A stretch of 62,010 bases of DNA from an uncultured Candidatus Peribacteria bacterium (lineage in GTDB: Bacteria; Patescibacteriota; Gracilibacteria; UBA1369; UBA12470): contig CAZRWH010000001.1 in assembly GCA_964603905.1 (NCBI GenBank), positions 3,146-65,155 of the forward strand. The letters run 5' to 3'. The notes under the pieces were generated by a model, which was not told the DNA's origin, ran no database searches, and saw only the letters and a program-made list of their open reading frames with translations. Every line of letters starts with the position of its first letter. The first letter of the stretch is position 1. Of this stretch, positions 4,041 through 57,875 are shown piece after piece. The position numbers and the translations under genes are program-made.

Positions 4041-4080
4041 AATGATTAGTTAGTAGTGAGTAATAAGTAATGAGAAGTGG
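4041..4080 (-). repeat. family-B G-free leader filling the whole atpA-atpB spacer
   Basis: 40 nt with no C on the plus strand: AATGATTAGTTAGTAGTGAGTAATAAGTAATGAGAAGTGG. Confidence 0.65.
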
Positions 4081-5892: not shown

Positions 5893-6249
5893 TTATTTGT
5901 CTCCCAAAATATCAGATCCAACCGCTTGTTCAACGATTTTACTGATTCTTTTTAGTCCATATCCTGTTGTTCCTTTCGGTCCTGGGATTGGAATGATTGC
6001 AGGCAGAGCTGCTGATGAAAGTTTTTTCATTTCATCGTGATTGATTCCGGTTGCTAGATCTTCGATGATGAAGATGATTGCGTATGCCGGTACTGAACTA
6101 TCTTCACTTCCGATCTTTGTTTTCACTAGTTTTTGTAGAGTTTCTAGTGCTTGTTCTGTATCCAAAGCGCTGTGTGCCTCGAGTCCCAATGCTTGGAATC
6201 CTAGGATTGCGTCTTTTGGACCTACAATTGCAATTTTGTGCTTATCCAT
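5893..6249 (-). CDS. atpF: V/A-type ATP synthase subunit F
   Basis: 118 aa. KIAIVGPKDAILGFQALGLE matches the subunit F pattern. Operon position between C and A. Confidence 0.85.
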   Translation of the reverse strand: MDKHKIAIVGPKDAILGFQALGLEAHSALDTEQALETLQKLVKTKIGSEDSSVPAYAIIFIIEDLATGINHDEMKKLSSAALPAIIPIPGPKGTTGYGLKRISKIVEQAVGSDILGDK

Positions 6250-6332
6250 TAGGTAGTAGTAGTTAGTAGTGATAGTTGTAGTGTTGTAGTTGGTGGTAGT
6301 AGTGGTAGTTTTGCGCCTTTGGTGCTGGCTTG
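6250..6332 (-). repeat. extended family-A G-free leader (63 nt) plus small hairpin 6313-6325
   Basis: 6250-6312 has no C on the plus strand (GGTAGTAGTAGTTAGTAGTGATAGTTGTAGTGTTGTAGTTGGTGGTAGTAGTGGTAGTTTT). The hairpin is GCGCC-TTT-GGTGC with a G.T wobble. Confidence 0.65.
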
Positions 6333-7376: not shown

Positions 7377-7413
7377 TATAATGAGAAGTGAGTAATGAGT
7401 AGTGAGAAGTTAA
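7377..7413 (-). repeat. family-B G-free leader upstream of atpC
   Basis: TATAATGAGAAGTGAGTAATGAGTAGTGAGAAGTTAA, with no C on the plus strand. Confidence 0.65.
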
Positions 7414-7968
7414 TTAGAACAAGATATTAGCTACTTTTGTTTCAAGTTCTCCTCGTAGTTTTTTCTCGATAACTGAATCAAATGTGAAGTCGTATTCAAC
7501 TTTTCCTGTTTTAAGAACGAATCCTCCAAGGAAAGTTCCTTCTTCACCAAGTTTGTATTGTGTGTTTGCAATTACTTCTTCTGTTTCAGCTTTTTTACCT
7601 TTTGCGTAAGTGATTTCACCTTCTTTTTCTGCTTCTTGTGCTTTTTTTATAGAAGACTCGATGTATTTTTTGTAGTTTGGAGAGTCAACTAGTGCGCTTA
7701 GCGTGTTGTCAAAAATTTGGTCGATTAGTTCTCGTTTTTTCGCAAGAATTTGTTTTCTTCTTTCTGCATTTGCTAGCATCTCAGTTCTTTCTTTTACTTT
7801 TGCAGCGCCGTCTACCGCTTTCTTTTCGATATTCTTGATAGATTGTGCTTTTTTCTCTGTATATTTGTCTTCTACAGCTTTCAAAGCGTTTGCTAGTTGC
7901 TTTTCCATTTCTTCTAGCTTTTGCGTTCCGATGTTTTCGATTTCAGATATTAGGTCTGTTAGTGACAT
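7414..7968 (-). CDS. atpE: V/A-type ATP synthase subunit E (peripheral stalk)
   Basis: 184 aa. N-terminal charged coiled coil plus C-terminal globular part. Operon position. Confidence 0.85.
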   Translation of the reverse strand: MSLTDLISEIENIGTQKLEEMEKQLANALKAVEDKYTEKKAQSIKNIEKKAVDGAAKVKERTEMLANAERRKQILAKKRELIDQIFDNTLSALVDSPNYKKYIESSIKKAQEAEKEGEITYAKGKKAETEEVIANTQYKLGEEGTFLGGFVLKTGKVEYDFTFDSVIEKKLRGELETKVANILF

Positions 7969-8119
7969 GTTTTTGGTAGTTAGTAGTTGATAGTGGTAGT
8001 TGTAGTCTTGGTGTCCCGCTCAGCGGGACGGAATTTATATTTTGCGCTTTTAGCCTTGCGCATTATTTCAGACTTGTAACCCCGTTCGAGCGGACTCGAC
8101 CGGGGATGAAGTCAAAAAT
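7969..8119 (-). repeat. atpK-atpE spacer: long hairpin (8083-8108), GTCCCGC hairpin repeat (8009-8029), family-A leader (7975-8006)
   Basis: TGGTGTCCCGCTCAGCGGGAC recurs at 15981-16001. GGTAGTTAGTAGTTGATAGTGGTAGTTGTAGT abuts the atpE ATG. Confidence 0.65.
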
Positions 8120-8643: not shown

Positions 8644-10617
8644 TTAGTCCTTTAGATGAGTGTATTTGCATTCACGTTTGAATGGCTCGAAGTCTTTTCC
8701 TCCACCTTCCATGAATTTCCCGAAGAACTCTACGTATTGCAGACGAGCCGAGTGGATGAAAGCTCCTAGCGTTGATAGCGCTATATTAAGTGTGTGACCT
8801 AGTATAATTACGATGAATCCAACGATGAATCCAACATAAGGAATTAGATCTACCATAATGGTTGCGATTGTATTCATTGCAAACGCGATAATTCCAGTAC
8901 CAAGACCAAGGGCCATGATACGAGAGTAAGAAAGTACGTCTGAGAAGTATCCAACTACATTATATAGAGACAGAACTCCAAGTCCGAGCTTTCCGACGAT
9001 GCTCTTTGACTTTCTTCCTTGAGTTAGGATTAGTGCAATTGTTAATCCAAGAGCAATGTTATTAGAAAGTCCAGCATAAGGTTGTAGTGGCTCGATTGCT
9101 GAAGTTGCTCCAAGGCCTAGTAGTGAAGTTAGGAAGATTATCCAAAGAAGGCTGTCTAGAAGTGCGTCCATGACCTTTCCGTCTTTGAGTTTCCAGTATC
9201 CATCAACCATTAGACCAACAAATACTTGAATAATTCCCATTGCGAATGCTAGTCCGAGGAATACAAGAGCCCCTGATCCTACAGGATTGATGATTTGTCC
9301 TTTGAATCCAAGAACGCCATTCTTCATTTCTGTTAAGAAGGCTGGTGCTTGCTCTGGAGTAAGTCCGAACCATCCACCAAGTAGTACACCTGCTACGAAC
9401 GTAACAAGTCCTCCCCACATAAGTAGTCTTAGTAGTCCTTTGCTTCCTTCAGGGATCTTTAGGAATTTAAGAGCTACAAAACAAAGTGAGAATAGCAGGA
9501 ATCCATATCCTGAGTCTGACAAACATAGTCCGAAGAATATAATAAAGAAAGCTGCCAAGAATGGTGTTGGGTCGACTTCTGTAGGAAGTGGAAGTCCGTA
9601 GATTCTTGTTACAGATTCAAACATGTTCATGAATCCTTTGTTTCGTAGTTCGACCGGTGCGCTTTCGTCTTCTTCTGGCTCTACTTCCATGATTGCGACT
9701 CCTGGAAGTTCTTTTTTTATTTCTTCTTTAAGATTAGTTAGTTCTTCTTTCTTCGCCCATCCTGTCATTACGAATGTGTACTCAGTTTCTCCTGCCATGT
9801 CTTTGTGTTCTTCTCTCACGAATTGCCATAGGTACCAATCGTGTACTATTTTCAGGCTGTCGCTGTTCTTTGCTACTTGCGTTAGTTCTTTTTCAATTTT
9901 CTCTAGTTCTTTTTGAAGTGATCCTTCTTCTTTCTTAATTTCTTTTAGGTGTTTTTTTACACCCCCTGTAGCCGTAATAAGATCAGCTTCTTGTACTCTG
10001 TACTCATTTAGCAGGGGTTGTATTTGGTCTGAATCTGAAAGCAGGTGGATTAGAGAGAAGTAAGCTTTTGATTGATCTTCTGACACTGTGTGGAAGTCAA
10101 CTTTTGCATCTAGTTTTGCAAGTGCGCTTTTGAACTCTTCGAAATCAAGCTTTCCTATTACTCCAAGCACTAGCTTTGCGTGCTTTGTCGTGTGAGGTGT
10201 ATCTAGGTGAACTCTTAGGTTTTTCCAAGGTTCTAGAGTTCGTTCTTCTTGAGTGATGTCTGATAGTCTGTTCTTTGCTTTGACCATTTTTTCTTCTAGG
10301 TCTTGGCAAAGTTTCACAACTTCTTCGTAGTTGAATGTTTTTGCAATAGACTCGATGTTGTCTGCATTTAATATGATTGGAGCAGGAAGAATTCCTTTCT
10401 TCTCATAGTCTGCAAGTAACTTGATTGCGAAGTCTAGATTTGCAAGCTTTAGCTCAAGTTCATGGTCATGCTTTTGAGCCTGAGAAACTCTTGAAGATAC
10501 TTCTTCTCCGAGATCTTTTAGCTCAAGGATATTTTTCTTTTGCAAAAGCTCCATAGCTTGCTCGAGCTTATTTCGAAGCCCGATGATCTGGATCTTTTGC
10601 ATTGGTATTACAGCCAT
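8644..10617 (-). CDS. atpI: V/A-type ATP synthase subunit I (a-like stator)
   Basis: 657 aa. Soluble N-terminal half plus a multi-TM C-terminal half ending in the conserved ...SYSRIMALGLG...HSARLQYVEFFGKF. Confidence 0.93.
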   Translation of the reverse strand: MAVIPMQKIQIIGLRNKLEQAMELLQKKNILELKDLGEEVSSRVSQAQKHDHELELKLANLDFAIKLLADYEKKGILPAPIILNADNIESIAKTFNYEEVVKLCQDLEEKMVKAKNRLSDITQEERTLEPWKNLRVHLDTPHTTKHAKLVLGVIGKLDFEEFKSALAKLDAKVDFHTVSEDQSKAYFSLIHLLSDSDQIQPLLNEYRVQEADLITATGGVKKHLKEIKKEEGSLQKELEKIEKELTQVAKNSDSLKIVHDWYLWQFVREEHKDMAGETEYTFVMTGWAKKEELTNLKEEIKKELPGVAIMEVEPEEDESAPVELRNKGFMNMFESVTRIYGLPLPTEVDPTPFLAAFFIIFFGLCLSDSGYGFLLFSLCFVALKFLKIPEGSKGLLRLLMWGGLVTFVAGVLLGGWFGLTPEQAPAFLTEMKNGVLGFKGQIINPVGSGALVFLGLAFAMGIIQVFVGLMVDGYWKLKDGKVMDALLDSLLWIIFLTSLLGLGATSAIEPLQPYAGLSNNIALGLTIALILTQGRKSKSIVGKLGLGVLSLYNVVGYFSDVLSYSRIMALGLGTGIIAFAMNTIATIMVDLIPYVGFIVGFIVIILGHTLNIALSTLGAFIHSARLQYVEFFGKFMEGGGKDFEPFKRECKYTHLKD

Positions 10618-10678
10618 GTTAGGTAGTTAGTTGTTGTAGTGGTAGTTGTAGCTATTGAGCCCTGTTGGGCCAGCTTTA
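10618..10678 (-). repeat. family-A G-free leader (10622-10651) plus weak hairpin
   Basis: GGTAGTTAGTTGTTGTAGTGGTAGTTGTAG is identical over 30 nt to the copy at 52373-52402. Confidence 0.7.
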
Positions 10679-11020: not shown

Positions 11021-11100
11021 TCTTTATGTAGTTAGTAGTTATAGTGGTAGTTGTAGTCATGGTGTTTTTTTGGCCAAAAAAGCGATTTTAACCTTAAAAC
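11021..11100 (-). repeat. family-A G-free leader (11028-11057) plus A/T palindrome (11065-11081)
   Basis: GTAGTTAGTAGTTATAGTGGTAGTTGTAGT lies next to the ATG. The palindrome is TTTTTTTGGCCAAAAAA. Confidence 0.6.
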
Positions 11101-15865: not shown

Positions 15866-16048
15866 TTTTGTTTTTGGTTAGTCGAGAGTCGAGAATCGAC
15901 AGTCGAAAGTGGTTGGTGTTTTGCTTTGCAAAACGGAATTGTTAGTGATTCCGCGGGGACCGCTTCGCTTCCCTGCGGCGTGGTGTCCCGCTGAGCGGGA
16001 CTGTTTTATTTTAATCCATACGTCATAAGTCTTATGTCATATGTCTAT
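15866..16048 (-). promoter_or_regulatory. 183-nt highly structured spacer upstream of the SLH gene
   Basis: Hairpins at 15918-15934, 15951-15978 and 15985-16001 (GTCCCGCTGAGCGGGAC). TCGAC-rich tandem motif at 15880-15910. ATGAC-type motif at 16020-16046. Confidence 0.5.
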
Positions 16049-20103: not shown

Positions 20104-21030
20104 ATGAACACATCTATCGATTTCTGCGGCGTAACTTTCCCTAACCCGACTGTTCTCGCTTCAGGGATTTTGGGTGTTATTGGAGACAGCCTCAAAAATG
20201 TTGCTCGAGAAGGAGCAGGTGGAGTGACCTCAAAGTCAGTTTGGCTTGAACGTCACGAAGGTCATGCTAACCCAACAATGATGGGAACTGAGCATTTTTA
20301 TATCAATGCGGTTGGGCTTCCTGATGGTGGAATTGAAAAGGCTCGAGAAGAGCTCGGTAAATATCTTGCTTGGGAAAAAAGAGTGCCTTTGATCGGAAAT
20401 ATTGTCGCTGGGAATATTGCGGATTTTGAAGAGATTGCAGGTAAGATGGTTGAAATTGGGCCAGATATTATCGAGGTAAACATTAGTTGTCCGAATGTTG
20501 AAGATGAGTTTGGAAGACCTTTTGCTTGTGTTGTTGAGGATGCGGCTGAGGTGACTCGTGTTGTGAAAAGTGTAGTTAAAACTATTCCTGTTGCGATCAA
20601 GCTTTCGCCAAATGTTGCGAACATTGGTGAGATTGCAGCGGCTTGTGAAAAAGAAGGCGCTGATGCGATTACGGCTGTGAACACTTTCGGCCCTGGAATG
20701 GTTATCGATATTGATACTGCTGAGCCGATTTTGGCTAACAAAGTTGGTGGAGTTAGTGGTCCTGGTATCAAGCCTCTGGCGGTTAAGCGTGTTTGGGATG
20801 TGGCGAATGCTGTTTCTATCCCTGTGATTGGGATGGGAGGTGTTACTTGTGGACGCGATATTATTGAGTTCATGATGGCCGGCGCGAGTCTAGTTGGGAT
20901 TGGTGCAGGCGTTTATTATGGTGGAGTTGAGATATTTGGAAATGCGATGAAAGAGGTTGAGGAGTGGATGACTGAGAATGGTGTTACGGATTTAAATGAA
21001 ATTATTGGTAAAGCTGTTAAAAAGACTTAA
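20104..21030 (+). CDS. pyrD: dihydroorotate dehydrogenase, class 1B catalytic subunit
   Basis: 308 aa. NPTVLASG...SCPN...GGVSGPGIKP motifs. Followed by pyrK. Confidence 0.93.
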   Translation: MNTSIDFCGVTFPNPTVLASGILGVIGDSLKNVAREGAGGVTSKSVWLERHEGHANPTMMGTEHFYINAVGLPDGGIEKAREELGKYLAWEKRVPLIGNIVAGNIADFEEIAGKMVEIGPDIIEVNISCPNVEDEFGRPFACVVEDAAEVTRVVKSVVKTIPVAIKLSPNVANIGEIAAACEKEGADAITAVNTFGPGMVIDIDTAEPILANKVGGVSGPGIKPLAVKRVWDVANAVSIPVIGMGGVTCGRDIIEFMMAGASLVGIGAGVYYGGVEIFGNAMKEVEEWMTENGVTDLNEIIGKAVKKT

Positions 21031-21042
21031 GACATATGACTT

Positions 21043-21840
21043 ATGACTGACATACCAAAAGTTCTAAAAATTGCAGAAGTTCGAGACGAAAACCCTACGG
21101 TAAAAACGTATGTTTTCCGAGGATACGATTTGGGTGCTAGGCCTGGGCAGTTTGTGAATCTTTGGATGCCTCGCGTCAATGAAAAACCTTTCTCGGTTGC
21201 TTATTGTGACGAGGACGAGTTTTGGCTGACGATTGCGGCGGTTGGAGACTTTACGAAAAAGCTTCATTCTGAATTTGGTGTCGGTGACAAGCTTGGAGTT
21301 CGTGGGCCTTACGGTAAAGGTTACACAATCCCACAAGGTAAGAAGATTGCGCTTTTGGCAGGTGGGTATGGTGCGGCGCCTCTTTATTTTGTTGCGCAAG
21401 AAGCCGTGAAGAATGGATGCACAGTTGAATTTATTGTTGGAGCACGAAATAAAGATCTGCTTCTTTATTTAGACAGAATTGAGCAAGCGGAAGGTATGAA
21501 TTTGCATGTTGCGACTGATGACGGGGCTGTTGGAGAGCAAGGTTACAACACTCAAATTCTTGAGAAGTTAATTGATGATGTTGATATGGTTGCGACTTGT
21601 GGTCCTGAGATTATGATGCGAGCTGCGATGAATATTTGTGAAAAAGCTGGTAAGCCGATCGAGGTTTCGATTGAGAGATATATGAAGTGTGGATCGGGTG
21701 TTTGTGGGAACTGTTGTGTTGATGGTCTTGGTGTTCCGGTTTGTCAAAAAGGACCTGTGATGCCAGGTAAAATGGCGAGAAAAATTGAAGGATTGGCGGA
21801 GTTTCATAGGGATAATGTGGGGTTTAAGATTGTTTATTGA
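21043..21840 (+). CDS. pyrK: dihydroorotate dehydrogenase electron-transfer subunit
   Basis: 265 aa. FAD/NAD-binding fold plus C-terminal CGSGVCGNCC Fe-S motif. Confidence 0.9.
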   Translation: MTDIPKVLKIAEVRDENPTVKTYVFRGYDLGARPGQFVNLWMPRVNEKPFSVAYCDEDEFWLTIAAVGDFTKKLHSEFGVGDKLGVRGPYGKGYTIPQGKKIALLAGGYGAAPLYFVAQEAVKNGCTVEFIVGARNKDLLLYLDRIEQAEGMNLHVATDDGAVGEQGYNTQILEKLIDDVDMVATCGPEIMMRAAMNICEKAGKPIEVSIERYMKCGSGVCGNCCVDGLGVPVCQKGPVMPGKMARKIEGLAEFHRDNVGFKIVY

Positions 21841-50104: not shown

Positions 50105-50629
50105 TTAGCCTTTTTTAGAATTTTTAGCGTTCTTTGCTTTTGCTTCTTCTTTTTTCTTAATCAGCACTTCTTTACGTTTTCTGTTTGGATTTCCAAGTGC
50201 TTCTACTGTACCACCTGCTTTCTCTATTTTTGCTTGAGCAGCTTTAGATACGCTTTCAACTGTTATTGTGATTTTTCTTGTGATTTCTCCTTGGCTAAGT
50301 ACTTTCACAGGTTTGTCTGCGTGATCGATTAGACCAGCTTTTTTAAGAGCGTCTTTGTCGAATTTTGCACCTTTGATCTCTTCAAGTTGGCTTAGGTTGA
50401 CAACTTGGTATCGAACTTTGTTCGGGTTTTTGAAACCTTTTAGCTTTGGCATTTTTCGGATCAGAGGTGTTTGTCCTCCTTCGAATCCTGGCCTTCTTTT
50501 TCCTCCACTTCTAGAAGATTGTCCGTTCATTCCTCTTCCTGAGTAGGTTCCTCGTTGAGACCCATTGCCGCGACCAACTCTTTTTTTGGTCTTTTGTGTA
50601 GCCGGCTTTTTAAGTGTGTTTAGTGCCAT
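50105..50629 (-). CDS. rplO: 50S ribosomal protein L15 (with K-rich C-terminal tail)
   Basis: 174 aa. GRGNGSQRGTYSGRG...GGQTPL motif. Confidence 0.94.
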   Translation of the reverse strand: MALNTLKKPATQKTKKRVGRGNGSQRGTYSGRGMNGQSSRSGGKRRPGFEGGQTPLIRKMPKLKGFKNPNKVRYQVVNLSQLEEIKGAKFDKDALKKAGLIDHADKPVKVLSQGEITRKITITVESVSKAAQAKIEKAGGTVEALGNPNRKRKEVLIKKKEEAKAKNAKNSKKG

Positions 50630-50669
50630 ATTAGGTAGTTGTAATTATTAGTGGTAGTTGTAGTACTAA
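50630..50669 (-). repeat. family-A G-free leader filling the rpsE-rplO spacer (no rpmD)
   Basis: ATTAGGTAGTTGTAATTATTAGTGGTAGTTGTAGTACTAA. The 40-nt gap leaves no room for L30. Confidence 0.65.
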
Positions 50670-51817: not shown

Positions 51818-52366
51818 TTAGCTTGCCGCTGTTTTACCTGCTTTTCTTCTTACATATTCTCCTTGGTATCGGATTCCTTTCCCTTTGTAAGGTTCCGGTT
51901 TCTTGTATCCTCGGATGATTGATGCAACGTGTCCTACAACCTCTTTGTCGATTCCTTTTACTGAAAGAATGTTTTTCTTGTCCTGGTCGATTTCGATTTC
52001 AATTCCTGCTGGTGGTGTGTATTCAACTGGATGAGAGAATCCTAGGTTGAGTACAAGTTTTTTACCTTGCATTTGAGCTCTGTAACCAACTCCTATGATC
52101 TCTAGTTTCTTTTCAAACCCTTCAGATACACCTGTTACAAGGTTTTGAAGTAGAGATCTTGTAAGTCCGTGGAGACTTCTAGAGAATTTATCTTCCTCTT
52201 TTCTTGTTACGACGATTTCGTTTTCTGTTATTTCAACGTTCACTTTTTCATGTGGTGTCATCTTTAGTTCACCTTTTGATCCTTTTACTGTTATTTCACC
52301 GTTTGCGTCTTGAGTGACAGTTACGCCATTTGGGATGTTAACGGGTTGTCTTCCTATTCGTGACAT
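51818..52366 (-). CDS. rplF: 50S ribosomal protein L6
   Basis: 182 aa. MSRIGRQPV.IP.GV motif. Confidence 0.95.
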   Translation of the reverse strand: MSRIGRQPVNIPNGVTVTQDANGEITVKGSKGELKMTPHEKVNVEITENEIVVTRKEEDKFSRSLHGLTRSLLQNLVTGVSEGFEKKLEIIGVGYRAQMQGKKLVLNLGFSHPVEYTPPAGIEIEIDQDKKNILSVKGIDKEVVGHVASIIRGYKKPEPYKGKGIRYQGEYVRRKAGKTAAS

Positions 52367-52428
52367 ATTTTAGGTAGTTAGTTGTTGTAGTGGTAGTTGT
52401 AGTAATTGTGCCCTTTGGGCAGATTATT
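52367..52428 (-). repeat. rpsH-rplF cassette: 5-bp hairpin (52409-52421) plus family-A leader (52373-52403)
   Basis: GGTAGTTAGTTGTTGTAGTGGTAGTTGTAGT. The hairpin is TGCCC-TTT-GGGCA. Confidence 0.7.
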
Positions 52429-52812: not shown

Positions 52813-52857
52813 ATTATTTAGTGAGTAATGAGTAGTTATTAGTGAGTAGTGTTTGGC
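52813..52857 (-). repeat. family-B G-free leader upstream of rpsH
   Basis: ATTATTTAGTGAGTAATGAGTAGTTATTAGTGAGTAGTGTTTGG. Confidence 0.65.
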
Positions 52858-54733: not shown

Positions 54734-54770
54734 AGAATTAGTGAGTAGTGAGTAATGAGTAATGAGTAGT
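54734..54770 (-). repeat. family-B G-free leader upstream of rpsQ
   Basis: AGAATTAGTGAGTAGTGAGTAATGAGTAATGAGTAGT fills the spacer, with no C on the plus strand. Confidence 0.7.
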
Positions 54771-55452: not shown

Positions 55453-56199
55453 CTAAGCCGCTTTTTTTGCAGCAGGTTTTCTTTTTGGTGCTGTTTTCTT
55501 AGCCTCTTTAGGCTCTTCTTTTTTCTCAGCTAGTGGTTTTGAGAATGGATTAACTGTTGTGCTTAGGTTCTTTTTGAACACATCACCTTTATAAATCCAA
55601 ACTTTGATTCCAATTACTCCGTAAGTTGTGTTTGCTCTTGATGTTGCGTAGTCGATATCTGCACGGAATGTATGTAGAGGGATTTTCCCTTGTGTGAAGA
55701 ACTCACTTCTTGAGATCTCTACTCCGTTTAGACGTCCTCCAGCTTGTACTTTGATACCTTTTGCACCTGACTCCATAGCTTTTTGTACTGCCATTTTTGC
55801 CGCTCTTCTGTAAGAAATTCTTCTTTCGATTTGTTTCGCTACAGAATCTGCAACAAGTTGTGCGTCTAGGTCAGGTTTTTGAATCTCTGTTACATTGATG
55901 TGGAACCTGTTTCCAAATTTCTTTTCTAGCTCTGTCCTGAATCCGTCGATTGACTCTCCTTGTCGTCCGATAATAACACCCGGTTTAGAACTGTGGATGT
56001 TGATAGTTGTCTCGTTCGCGCTTCTTAGGATTTGGATTGTTGATACTCCGCAATCTTTTAGCTTGTCTTGTACGTATTTTTTAAGCTTAAGATCTTGGTG
56101 GAAAGTAGCAGTGTACTGTTTTTTTCCTGTGTACCAACTAGAATCCCATTGCTTGATGATTCCTATTCTCTGGATTTTTGGATTAACTTTTTGTCCCAT
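55453..56199 (-). CDS. rpsC: 30S ribosomal protein S3 (K/A-rich tail)
   Basis: 248 aa. MGQKVNP.I.R.G KH-domain core. Tail ...EKKEEPKEAKKTAPKRKPAAKKAA. Confidence 0.95.
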   Translation of the reverse strand: MGQKVNPKIQRIGIIKQWDSSWYTGKKQYTATFHQDLKLKKYVQDKLKDCGVSTIQILRSANETTINIHSSKPGVIIGRQGESIDGFRTELEKKFGNRFHINVTEIQKPDLDAQLVADSVAKQIERRISYRRAAKMAVQKAMESGAKGIKVQAGGRLNGVEISRSEFFTQGKIPLHTFRADIDYATSRANTTYGVIGIKVWIYKGDVFKKNLSTTVNPFSKPLAEKKEEPKEAKKTAPKRKPAAKKAA

Positions 56200-56249
56200 A
56201 TTAGGTAGTTGTAGTTATAGTTATAGTAGTAGTTGTAGTATTGTAACTA
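56200..56249 (-). repeat. family-A-like G-free leader filling the rplV-rpsC spacer
   Basis: ATTAGGTAGTTGTAGTTATAGTTATAGTAGTAGTTGTAGTATTGTAAC. Confidence 0.6.
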
Positions 56250-57838: not shown

Positions 57839-57875
57839 TTATGTAGAGTTTTAGAATTTTAGAATTTTAGAATCT
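57839..57875 (-). repeat. family-C G-free tandem leader upstream of rplB
   Basis: TTATGTAGAGTTTTAGAATTTTAGAATTTTAGAATCT. Confidence 0.65.

Follow-up and report, generated by a model that had tools for sequence, protein, structure and literature searches.

The window, by which we mean the whole 62,010-nt stretch of DNA analysed here, is part of a 1.31-Mb assembly in 67 contigs from an uncultured Candidatus Peribacteria bacterium. The nearest relatives of its RplF protein (58-62% identity) come from MAGs labelled Candidatus Altimarinota, Peregrinibacteria and Peribacteria, and Ca. Peribacter is among the organisms listed as Shine-Dalgarno (SD)-scarce (PMC10783764). On the minus strand of the window, eight genes are preceded by an array of ACTACM hexamers, which we call Family A; each is G-free on the mRNA strand and runs into the ATG. 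A preliminary description of this DNA had reported a near-identical G-free leader before eight ATGs, and the observation holds: all eight arrays are G-free and abut the ATG, the one at the putative stalk gene lying 2 nt before it.

At rplF (ATG at 52364-52366), the G-free run containing the array covers 52365-52410 and includes the 31-mer ACTACAACTACCACTACAACAACTAACTACC exactly at 52373-52403; a 5-bp hairpin, TGCCC-AAA-GGGCA, lies directly 5' of the array at 52409-52421, also on the minus strand. Other copies of the 31-mer were found at 2558-2588 (one mismatch), 10622-10652 (one) and 11027-11057 (three); four copies are thus alike to within three mismatches, and 100 dinucleotide shuffles gave no match. 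All three further copies are minus-strand leaders with a minus-strand hairpin. The atpD leader (2555-2588) adjoins the atpD ATG (2554-2556) and is connected by the linker ACAATG (2589-2594) to an 8-bp hairpin, GTTTCGCC-CAA-GGCGAAAC, at 2595-2613. The atpI leader (10616-10651) adjoins the atpI ATG and has a 4-bp hairpin, GCCC-AACA-GGGC (10659-10670), beyond the linker TCAATAG. The leader of a 113-aa protein, the putative stalk subunit (11023-11057), has a 6-bp A/T hairpin, TTTTTTGGCCAAAAAA (11066-11081), beyond the linker ACACCATG. We also observed that TCAATAG (10652-10658), taken with the stem base at 10659, is a minority linker variant, CTCAATAG, found as well in contigs C13, C2 and C11 of the host; the variant is perhaps akin to BoxC-like RNA, which in M. 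tuberculosis is bound by the KH domains of NusA.

The remaining four arrays, at 6248-6313, 7967-8006, 50628-50665 and 56198-56246, are looser and have 27-31 of 31 positions in common with the rplF copy in gapped alignment. The first is a 66-nt G-free array of the ACTACM type that adjoins the atpF ATG, with no hairpin found; its extent had previously been given as 63 nt (6250-6312), and 66 nt is the corrected figure. No other leader is as long, although a longer C-free run exists on the window's plus strand. The second adjoins the ATG of a 184-aa protein and is linked by ACCAAG to a 7-bp hairpin, GTCCCGC-TGA-GCGGGAC, at 8013-8029; on the plus strand this hairpin is followed by GAATTTATAT, and 8012-8030 is flagged as terminator-like by program prediction. 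The third and fourth fill the spacer up to the rplO ATG and the rplV-rpsC spacer up to the rpsC ATG, and neither of these tight operon spacers contains a hairpin, GC-rich or otherwise.

Tandem Repeats Finder (TRF) reports period 6, with the plus-strand unit GTAGTT, at five of the eight sites (2569-2588, 10623-10651, 50635-50664, 52374-52403 and 56205-56239); at the other three the periods are 3, 8 and 27 (atpF), 7 and 13 (the 184-aa gene) and 12 (the 113-aa gene). Six of the eight gene names were confirmed by Pfam: atpD (ATP-synt_D), atpF (ATP-synt_F), atpI (V_ATPase_I), rplO (Ribosomal_L27A/L15), rplF (Ribosomal_L6) and rpsC (Ribosomal_S3_C). The names 'atpE' and 'stalk', given to the 184-aa and 113-aa proteins, are by position only, as neither protein has a Pfam match. 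The starts of rplF, rpsC and rplO are backed by orthologue alignments, and that of rplF is kept in seven relatives.

Other short repeats occur in the same DNA. TRF detects period-7 and period-8 arrays in other spacers of the window, and two further G-free leader families, with units ACTCAYT (period 7) and ATTCTAAA (period 8), alternate with Family A in its operons (sites at 4041-4080, 7377-7413, 52813-52857, 54734-54770 and 57844-57873). A heptamer family, GACTTAT/GACATAA/CATATGT, at 2614-2632, 16017-16045 and 21024-21048, forms near-palindromes such as CTTATGACATAAG and often lies just 5' of a hairpin. Finally, the minus strand at 1871-1911, 5' of the ORF at 1-1845, has a perfect TTGACA-17-TATAAT promoter that shares positions with a terminator-like hairpin of 14 bp, so the host genome does contain canonical sigma-70 promoters.

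Family A and its hairpin across the host genome

We surveyed the host using about 1000-1100 ORFs from a simple ORF caller, and compared eight genomes of its family, designated G000-G007, of which G000 is the host and the relatives belong to other genera. The 17-nt head of the array, ACTACAACTACCACTAC, has 63 copies in the host genome at no more than one mismatch; two other genera of the family have 10 and 5 copies, and the rest of the order about none. Genome-wide there are 82 G-free arrays of the ACTACM type, and Family A (unit ACTACM, period 6) is the commonest type of short tandem-repeat array in the host. Fifty of the 82 adjoin the start codon (43 ATG, 6 GTG, 1 TTG) of an ORF that is 60 aa or longer, reaching exactly to this codon in about 45 cases. 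A long open frame on the opposite strand runs into 20 arrays, and 12 adjoin no ORF of at least 60 aa. About 27 arrays sit in inverted orientation at the 3' end of a gene, and two are next to tRNAs of the rRNA operon; by context the tally is 39 '>E>', 11 '<E>', 13-16 '<E<' and 10-11 '>E<'. Seen from the genes, arrays within 45 nt of starts are sense in 41 cases and antisense in one, whereas at stops there are 11 sense and 18 antisense. Directly before start codons the array always shows its G-free strand, bar one doubtful ORF call.

The genes led by Family A include rpoB, fusA (an EF-G-type GTPase), nusA, dnaE, uvrA, lgt, def, purE, mraY and glyA, together with r-protein and V-ATPase genes, and we found no regulon and no functional or expression class among them. 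A link to high expression or to a regulon was rejected, given that dnaE, uvrA and priA-like genes share the leader with r-protein genes.

Between about 34 and 45 of the arrays are joined to a small hairpin, usually GTTTYNGC-N3-4-GCNRAAAC (GTTTYGC..GCRAAAC), by a 6-nt linker, WCCAWG, placed between the hairpin and the first ACTAC. A stem at a fixed distance 5' of the array has at least 5 bp in 34 of 76 arrays and at least 7 bp in 26 of 76. The stems vary between copies yet stay paired (GTCCCGC/GCGGGAC, GCCTGCC/GGCAGGC, ATTCCGC/GCGGAAT). A genome scan for a generic hairpin and linker was noisy, with 93 matches against 68 in a reversed control, and the GTTT-type subset alone was used. At rplF, atpI, atpD and glyA, identical arrays stand beside different hairpins, so there was no recent duplication of the element as a single unit. 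Rfam gave no match at the gathering score anywhere in the window, and on this ground a known RNA family was rejected. As a separate observation, a palindromic composite of inverted array, linker, hairpin, linker and array lies at G000:C17:17470-17580; if it were read into a single transcript, the leader downstream would be enclosed in a long stem as far as its ATG.

The array had been described as a dispersed module dedicated to initiation. We do not retain this part of the description, because the array belongs to a repeat of hairpin, linker and array that is also inverted behind genes and flanks tRNAs, and is hence a general gene-boundary repeat. That about one third of the arrays are not leaders at all counts against reading them as such.

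The hairpin might instead mark an expression or processing cassette, in which an A/T box would serve as the -10 element of a promoter or as an RNase site, transcripts would start or be cut at the hairpin, the hairpin would shield the mRNA 5' end and the array would be the 5' UTR. An A/T-rich box does occur 1-6 nt before the hairpin in three genera (TATAAAT and AATAAAC; TACTAT in G001; TATCAA in G002), and the hairpin covaries, with 6 of 7 pairs changed on both sides and 97.7% of cells paired, a percentage that is circular and not an independent test, since the set was chosen for having a stem. The box, however, is a run of A at -9..-3 upstream of the hairpin on the array strand, that is, the T tract of a terminator on the other strand, where a GC-containing stem-loop followed by a run of T has the shape of an intrinsic terminator; where the unit is inverted behind genes, hairpin and T tract look like an ordinary terminator. 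Position -35 carries no information content, and weak sigma-70 matches occur in 11 of 36 modules at distances scattered from 2 to 35 nt, for which reason a sigma-70 promoter inside the module was rejected. Copies in tight operons, and inverted copies, would moreover fire into nothing, and we regard the cassette as improbable.

Start regions and leader units in the host and its relatives

On the side of the preliminary description, the host genome does not use SD and avoids G before its starts. Upstream of starts G falls from 20-22% to 9-10% at -16..-1 and A rises to 42-48% at -14..-1, while SD 4-mers are depleted, being present in 6.3% of genes at -20..-4, as against 10.7% at -70..-54 and 16.8% in coding sequence. 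The run directly before the start is G-free for at least 20 nt in 277 genes and for at least 25 nt in 173 of 1113, compared with 40 and 22 genes, respectively, for C-free runs. This depletion of G is found across the genome and reaches well beyond the repeats. By inspection, a leader without G cannot hold AUG, GUG, UUG or an SD-like run, in agreement with the earlier statement that the leaders contain no SD. From -35 to +20 the mean folding energy is -1.6 kcal/mol for Family A genes and -4.5 kcal/mol for other genes (p = 9e-12), with random genomic 55-mers at -7.5 and reverse complements at -6.2 kcal/mol. The claim of unstructured, SD-independent leaders is thus supported, by the nearly unfolded initiation regions as well as by the strand bias at starts.

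The translation apparatus was inspected for corresponding features. The single 16S rRNA gene has a 3' end that reads GGAATACCTCCTTTCT; loss of the anti-SD, a possibility raised earlier, was rejected because the core CCUCC is kept. Complementarity of the leaders to 16S rRNA extends to 7 nt at most, no better than for shuffled leaders, and the 3' tail lacks GGUAGU; leader pairing with 16S rRNA was rejected on these grounds. An S1 protein with four S1 domains is encoded in a 388-aa frame (G000:C22:21759-22751). Searches for Ribosomal_S21 gave no match in any of the eight family genomes, in agreement with an earlier report that bS21 is absent in Peregrinibacteria (PMC9297842).

In the S10/spc operon of seven relatives, nearly every orthologous spacer is G-poor and built of repeats, with units that are the genome's own. 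Arrays of GCCTAAN number 49 in G001, one in G007 and none in the other six family genomes; arrays of CCCTAYA number 34 in G006 and 14 in G003, which are of one genus, one in G002 and none in the other five. The use of other genome-specific G-poor units by relatives argues that composition persists and sequence does not. G-containing arrays also adjoin starts in G001, so that freedom from G is not an absolute requirement. Because the unit is not conserved in sister genera, which fill orthologous spacers with other units, the near-identity of the copies points to homogenisation within the genome, and the earlier proposal of selection for the 30-mer itself is not upheld. Nevertheless, an ACTAC-type leader is kept across genera at rplF (G003 and G006) and lgt (G003), and at the G003 rplF, whose protein is 82% identical, it comes with a hairpin; this could reflect some selection on the sequence itself. 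In G001, one strand of a 30-kb stretch (C1:33000-62000) carries 36 of the 49 GCCTAAN arrays, and the compared part of this stretch (C1:35500-47500) holds ribosomal-protein genes; the clustering suggests regional homogenisation of leaders.

The pattern of hairpin plus linker was found 32 times in G001, 16 times in G002, 10 times in G000 and once each in G003 and G004, with no occurrence in 33 genomes of other families and none in controls. It is thus limited to some genera of one family, and its stems are genus-typical. Tandem units other than ACTACM follow the hairpin in G001 and G002 (CTGCAAG, CTAGGTA, CCTAAAG, CTATGAT). We also observed in G002 a 74-nt unit consisting of GGAAGCGAAGCGATCCCC..CTATCAATCAAGCC, the hairpin GTTTCCGCGTTAGCGGAAAC and ACCAT, tandemly repeated at C39:1-400 (locus L125), and a GGAAGCGAAGCGRTCCC piece that precedes several hairpins in that genome.

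As a rival account, the unit of hairpin, linker and array would be an interspersed repeat like REP, MITE or STRR elements, selfish or neutral, that spreads or expands in spacers without any role in translation and whose strand bias would be left by selective removal of the G-rich strand before starts or of the terminator-active strand in operons. The composite unit with its fixed linker and conserved head, the restriction of genus-typical hairpins to a few genera, the turnover of units between genomes, the inverted copies at gene 3' ends and the tandem repetition of an entire 74-nt unit in G002 all speak for this account, and the excess of 39 '>E>' over 13-16 '<E<' contexts fits a filter against polar termination. 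Against it, we saw neither terminal inverted repeats nor target duplications, a hairpin is missing from many arrays (just 34 of 76 show, at the fixed spacing, a stem of 5 bp or more), arrays run to the very start codon in about nine tenths of start-adjoining cases, and the depletion of G before starts is not confined to the repeats. The Y1/RAYT transposase (PF01797) is present in G002, G006 and G007, unrelated to copy number, and absent from the copy-rich G000 and G001, and a RAYT-driven REPIN model was rejected for this reason. We consider a purely selfish or neutral origin possible but doubtful.

A sequence-specific reader was the other account to be weighed. Here the ACUAC repeats would be read by a co-evolving trans factor, with S1, a Csp or KH protein or an antisense RNA as candidates, in a post-transcriptional network of the kind proposed for the TAACTGA repeats (PMC4679880). 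The head is near-identical at about 60 loci whose flanking hairpins differ, each genome has its own dominant unit, and at rplF and lgt an ACTAC-type leader persists from genus to genus. An antisense partner can be pointed to in the rRNA operon, in the 109-nt spacer between tRNA-Ile and tRNA-Ala (L137:496-604, corresponding to G000:C27:13145-13253), where an inverted G-rich array directly follows tRNA-Ile and a sense array directly precedes tRNA-Ala; the G-rich arm, AGUAGUGGUAGUUGUAG, is perfectly complementary to the conserved leader head of Family A. In G002 a tRNA is flanked by arrays in a comparable arrangement. The two arrays of the host spacer, however, pair with each other into a long stem (-31.2 kcal/mol, z = -3.7), so that the antisense arm is occupied in cis. 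The genes served also lack functional coherence, Families A, B and C alternate inside one operon, the leaders match 16S rRNA no better than shuffled ones do, and no candidate factor was found. Taken together, these points make a sequence-specific reader unlikely.

A bolder version of the same idea is that each family genome has its own 'leader code', in which the dominant unit co-evolves with a trans-acting reader, the host's reader being a candidate RNA that would be released from the rRNA operon with AGUAGUGGUAGUUGUAG antisense to about 60 leader heads. If this were true, translation of about 50 housekeeping genes would be tied, through the spacer-derived RNA, to the transcription of rRNA; we mention it as a highly speculative idea to which we give very little credence.

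A proposed role in initiation, and known systems

We hypothesize, with a probability of roughly 55%, that the arrays are repeat-built, unstructured leaders, free of start codons, that serve SD-independent initiation and are alike through the concerted evolution of a gene-boundary repeat family. According to this proposal, a sense array fills the gap between the upstream stop codon, or the small conserved hairpin, and the AUG. Since a G-free stretch of mRNA would be unable to fold stably, it would present an open tract before the AUG, and the leader would act as a landing pad for the ribosome, probably with help to the 30S subunit from the four-domain S1 protein. As the tract, having no G, offers neither an SD-like run nor AUG, GUG or UUG, the true start codon would be the first one that the 30S subunit meets on the open stretch. 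The best-supported useful property of the arrays is accordingly their composition: no G, no structure and no competing start codon. We infer that it is concerted evolution, through slippage, conversion or spacer-to-spacer copying, that has made the copies nearly identical, and not recognition of an exact sequence.

How start codons are chosen without SD pairing is still unsettled, and in one quarter of the genes of the host lineage the start is preceded by 20 or more G-free nt. Leaders that are built from interchangeable, genome-specific units offer a natural experiment that separates composition (no G, structure, upstream start codon) from sequence. They also provide a second compact system, besides Beggiatoaceae and cyanobacteria, for the question of why short tandem repeats gather at gene boundaries, and they are a warning for gene callers that CPR genomes need non-SD start models.

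In Flavobacterium, bS21 helps to sequester the anti-SD together with bS18 and bS6. Flavobacterium johnsoniae keeps the anti-SD while its mRNAs lack SD sequences, and low structure and A-rich positions before the start tune translation (Baez et al. 2019, PMC6847099). In its sequence features the host is similar, with a retained anti-SD, no SD enrichment, and low structure and A-richness at starts. Its leaders, unlike those of F. johnsoniae, are long (25-66 nt), G-free and built of repeats, bS21 is absent family-wide, and the mode of initiation is predicted from sequence. For E. coli, initiation at the correct sites without SD pairing has been reported (PMC7043885).

Like the REP and REPIN elements of Enterobacteria and Pseudomonas, the host has a small GC hairpin in many intergenic copies, sometimes as inverted doublets; GTAG 5' of the hairpin on one strand is a possible further likeness. 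Unlike in those elements, no RAYT gene accompanies high copy number, many arrays have no hairpin, and the GTAG lies 7 nt from the stem, inside the tandem array only. The STRR heptanucleotide repeats of heterocystous cyanobacteria are intergenic tandem arrays of 6-8-nt units, with several families per genome and rapid turnover. The host arrays share the intergenic position, the short units, the presence of several unit families and the rapid turnover; they differ in being strand-locked to start codons and linked to hairpins.

The closest published analogue of Family A is the TAACTGA heptamers of marine Beggiatoaceae, forward direct repeats that lie a few nucleotides from start codons and overlap the expected ribosome-binding site (MacGregor 2015, PMC4679880). 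They occupy SD-poor spacers, including those of r-protein operons, with no functional pattern downstream, and S1, Csp and Csr have been discussed as their readers (PMC4679880). Family A resembles them in its tandem 6-nt units, in its forward orientation at starts (50 of the 82 arrays), in its presence in r-protein operons and in the missing functional pattern. It differs in its units (ACTACA/ACTACC, with ACTCAYT and ATTCTAAA in other spacers), in a period of 6 and strict freedom from G, in the attachment of arrays to a conserved hairpin, in the inversion of one third of the copies at 3' ends, and in the change of unit type between sister genera; its host, moreover, is a CPR bacterium with genome-wide SD avoidance. 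Novel features are the complete lack of G over 25-66 nt, arrays coupled to a covarying hairpin, copies lying inverted at gene 3' ends and next to tRNAs, and, at orthologous spacers, a replacement of units that is specific to the genus.
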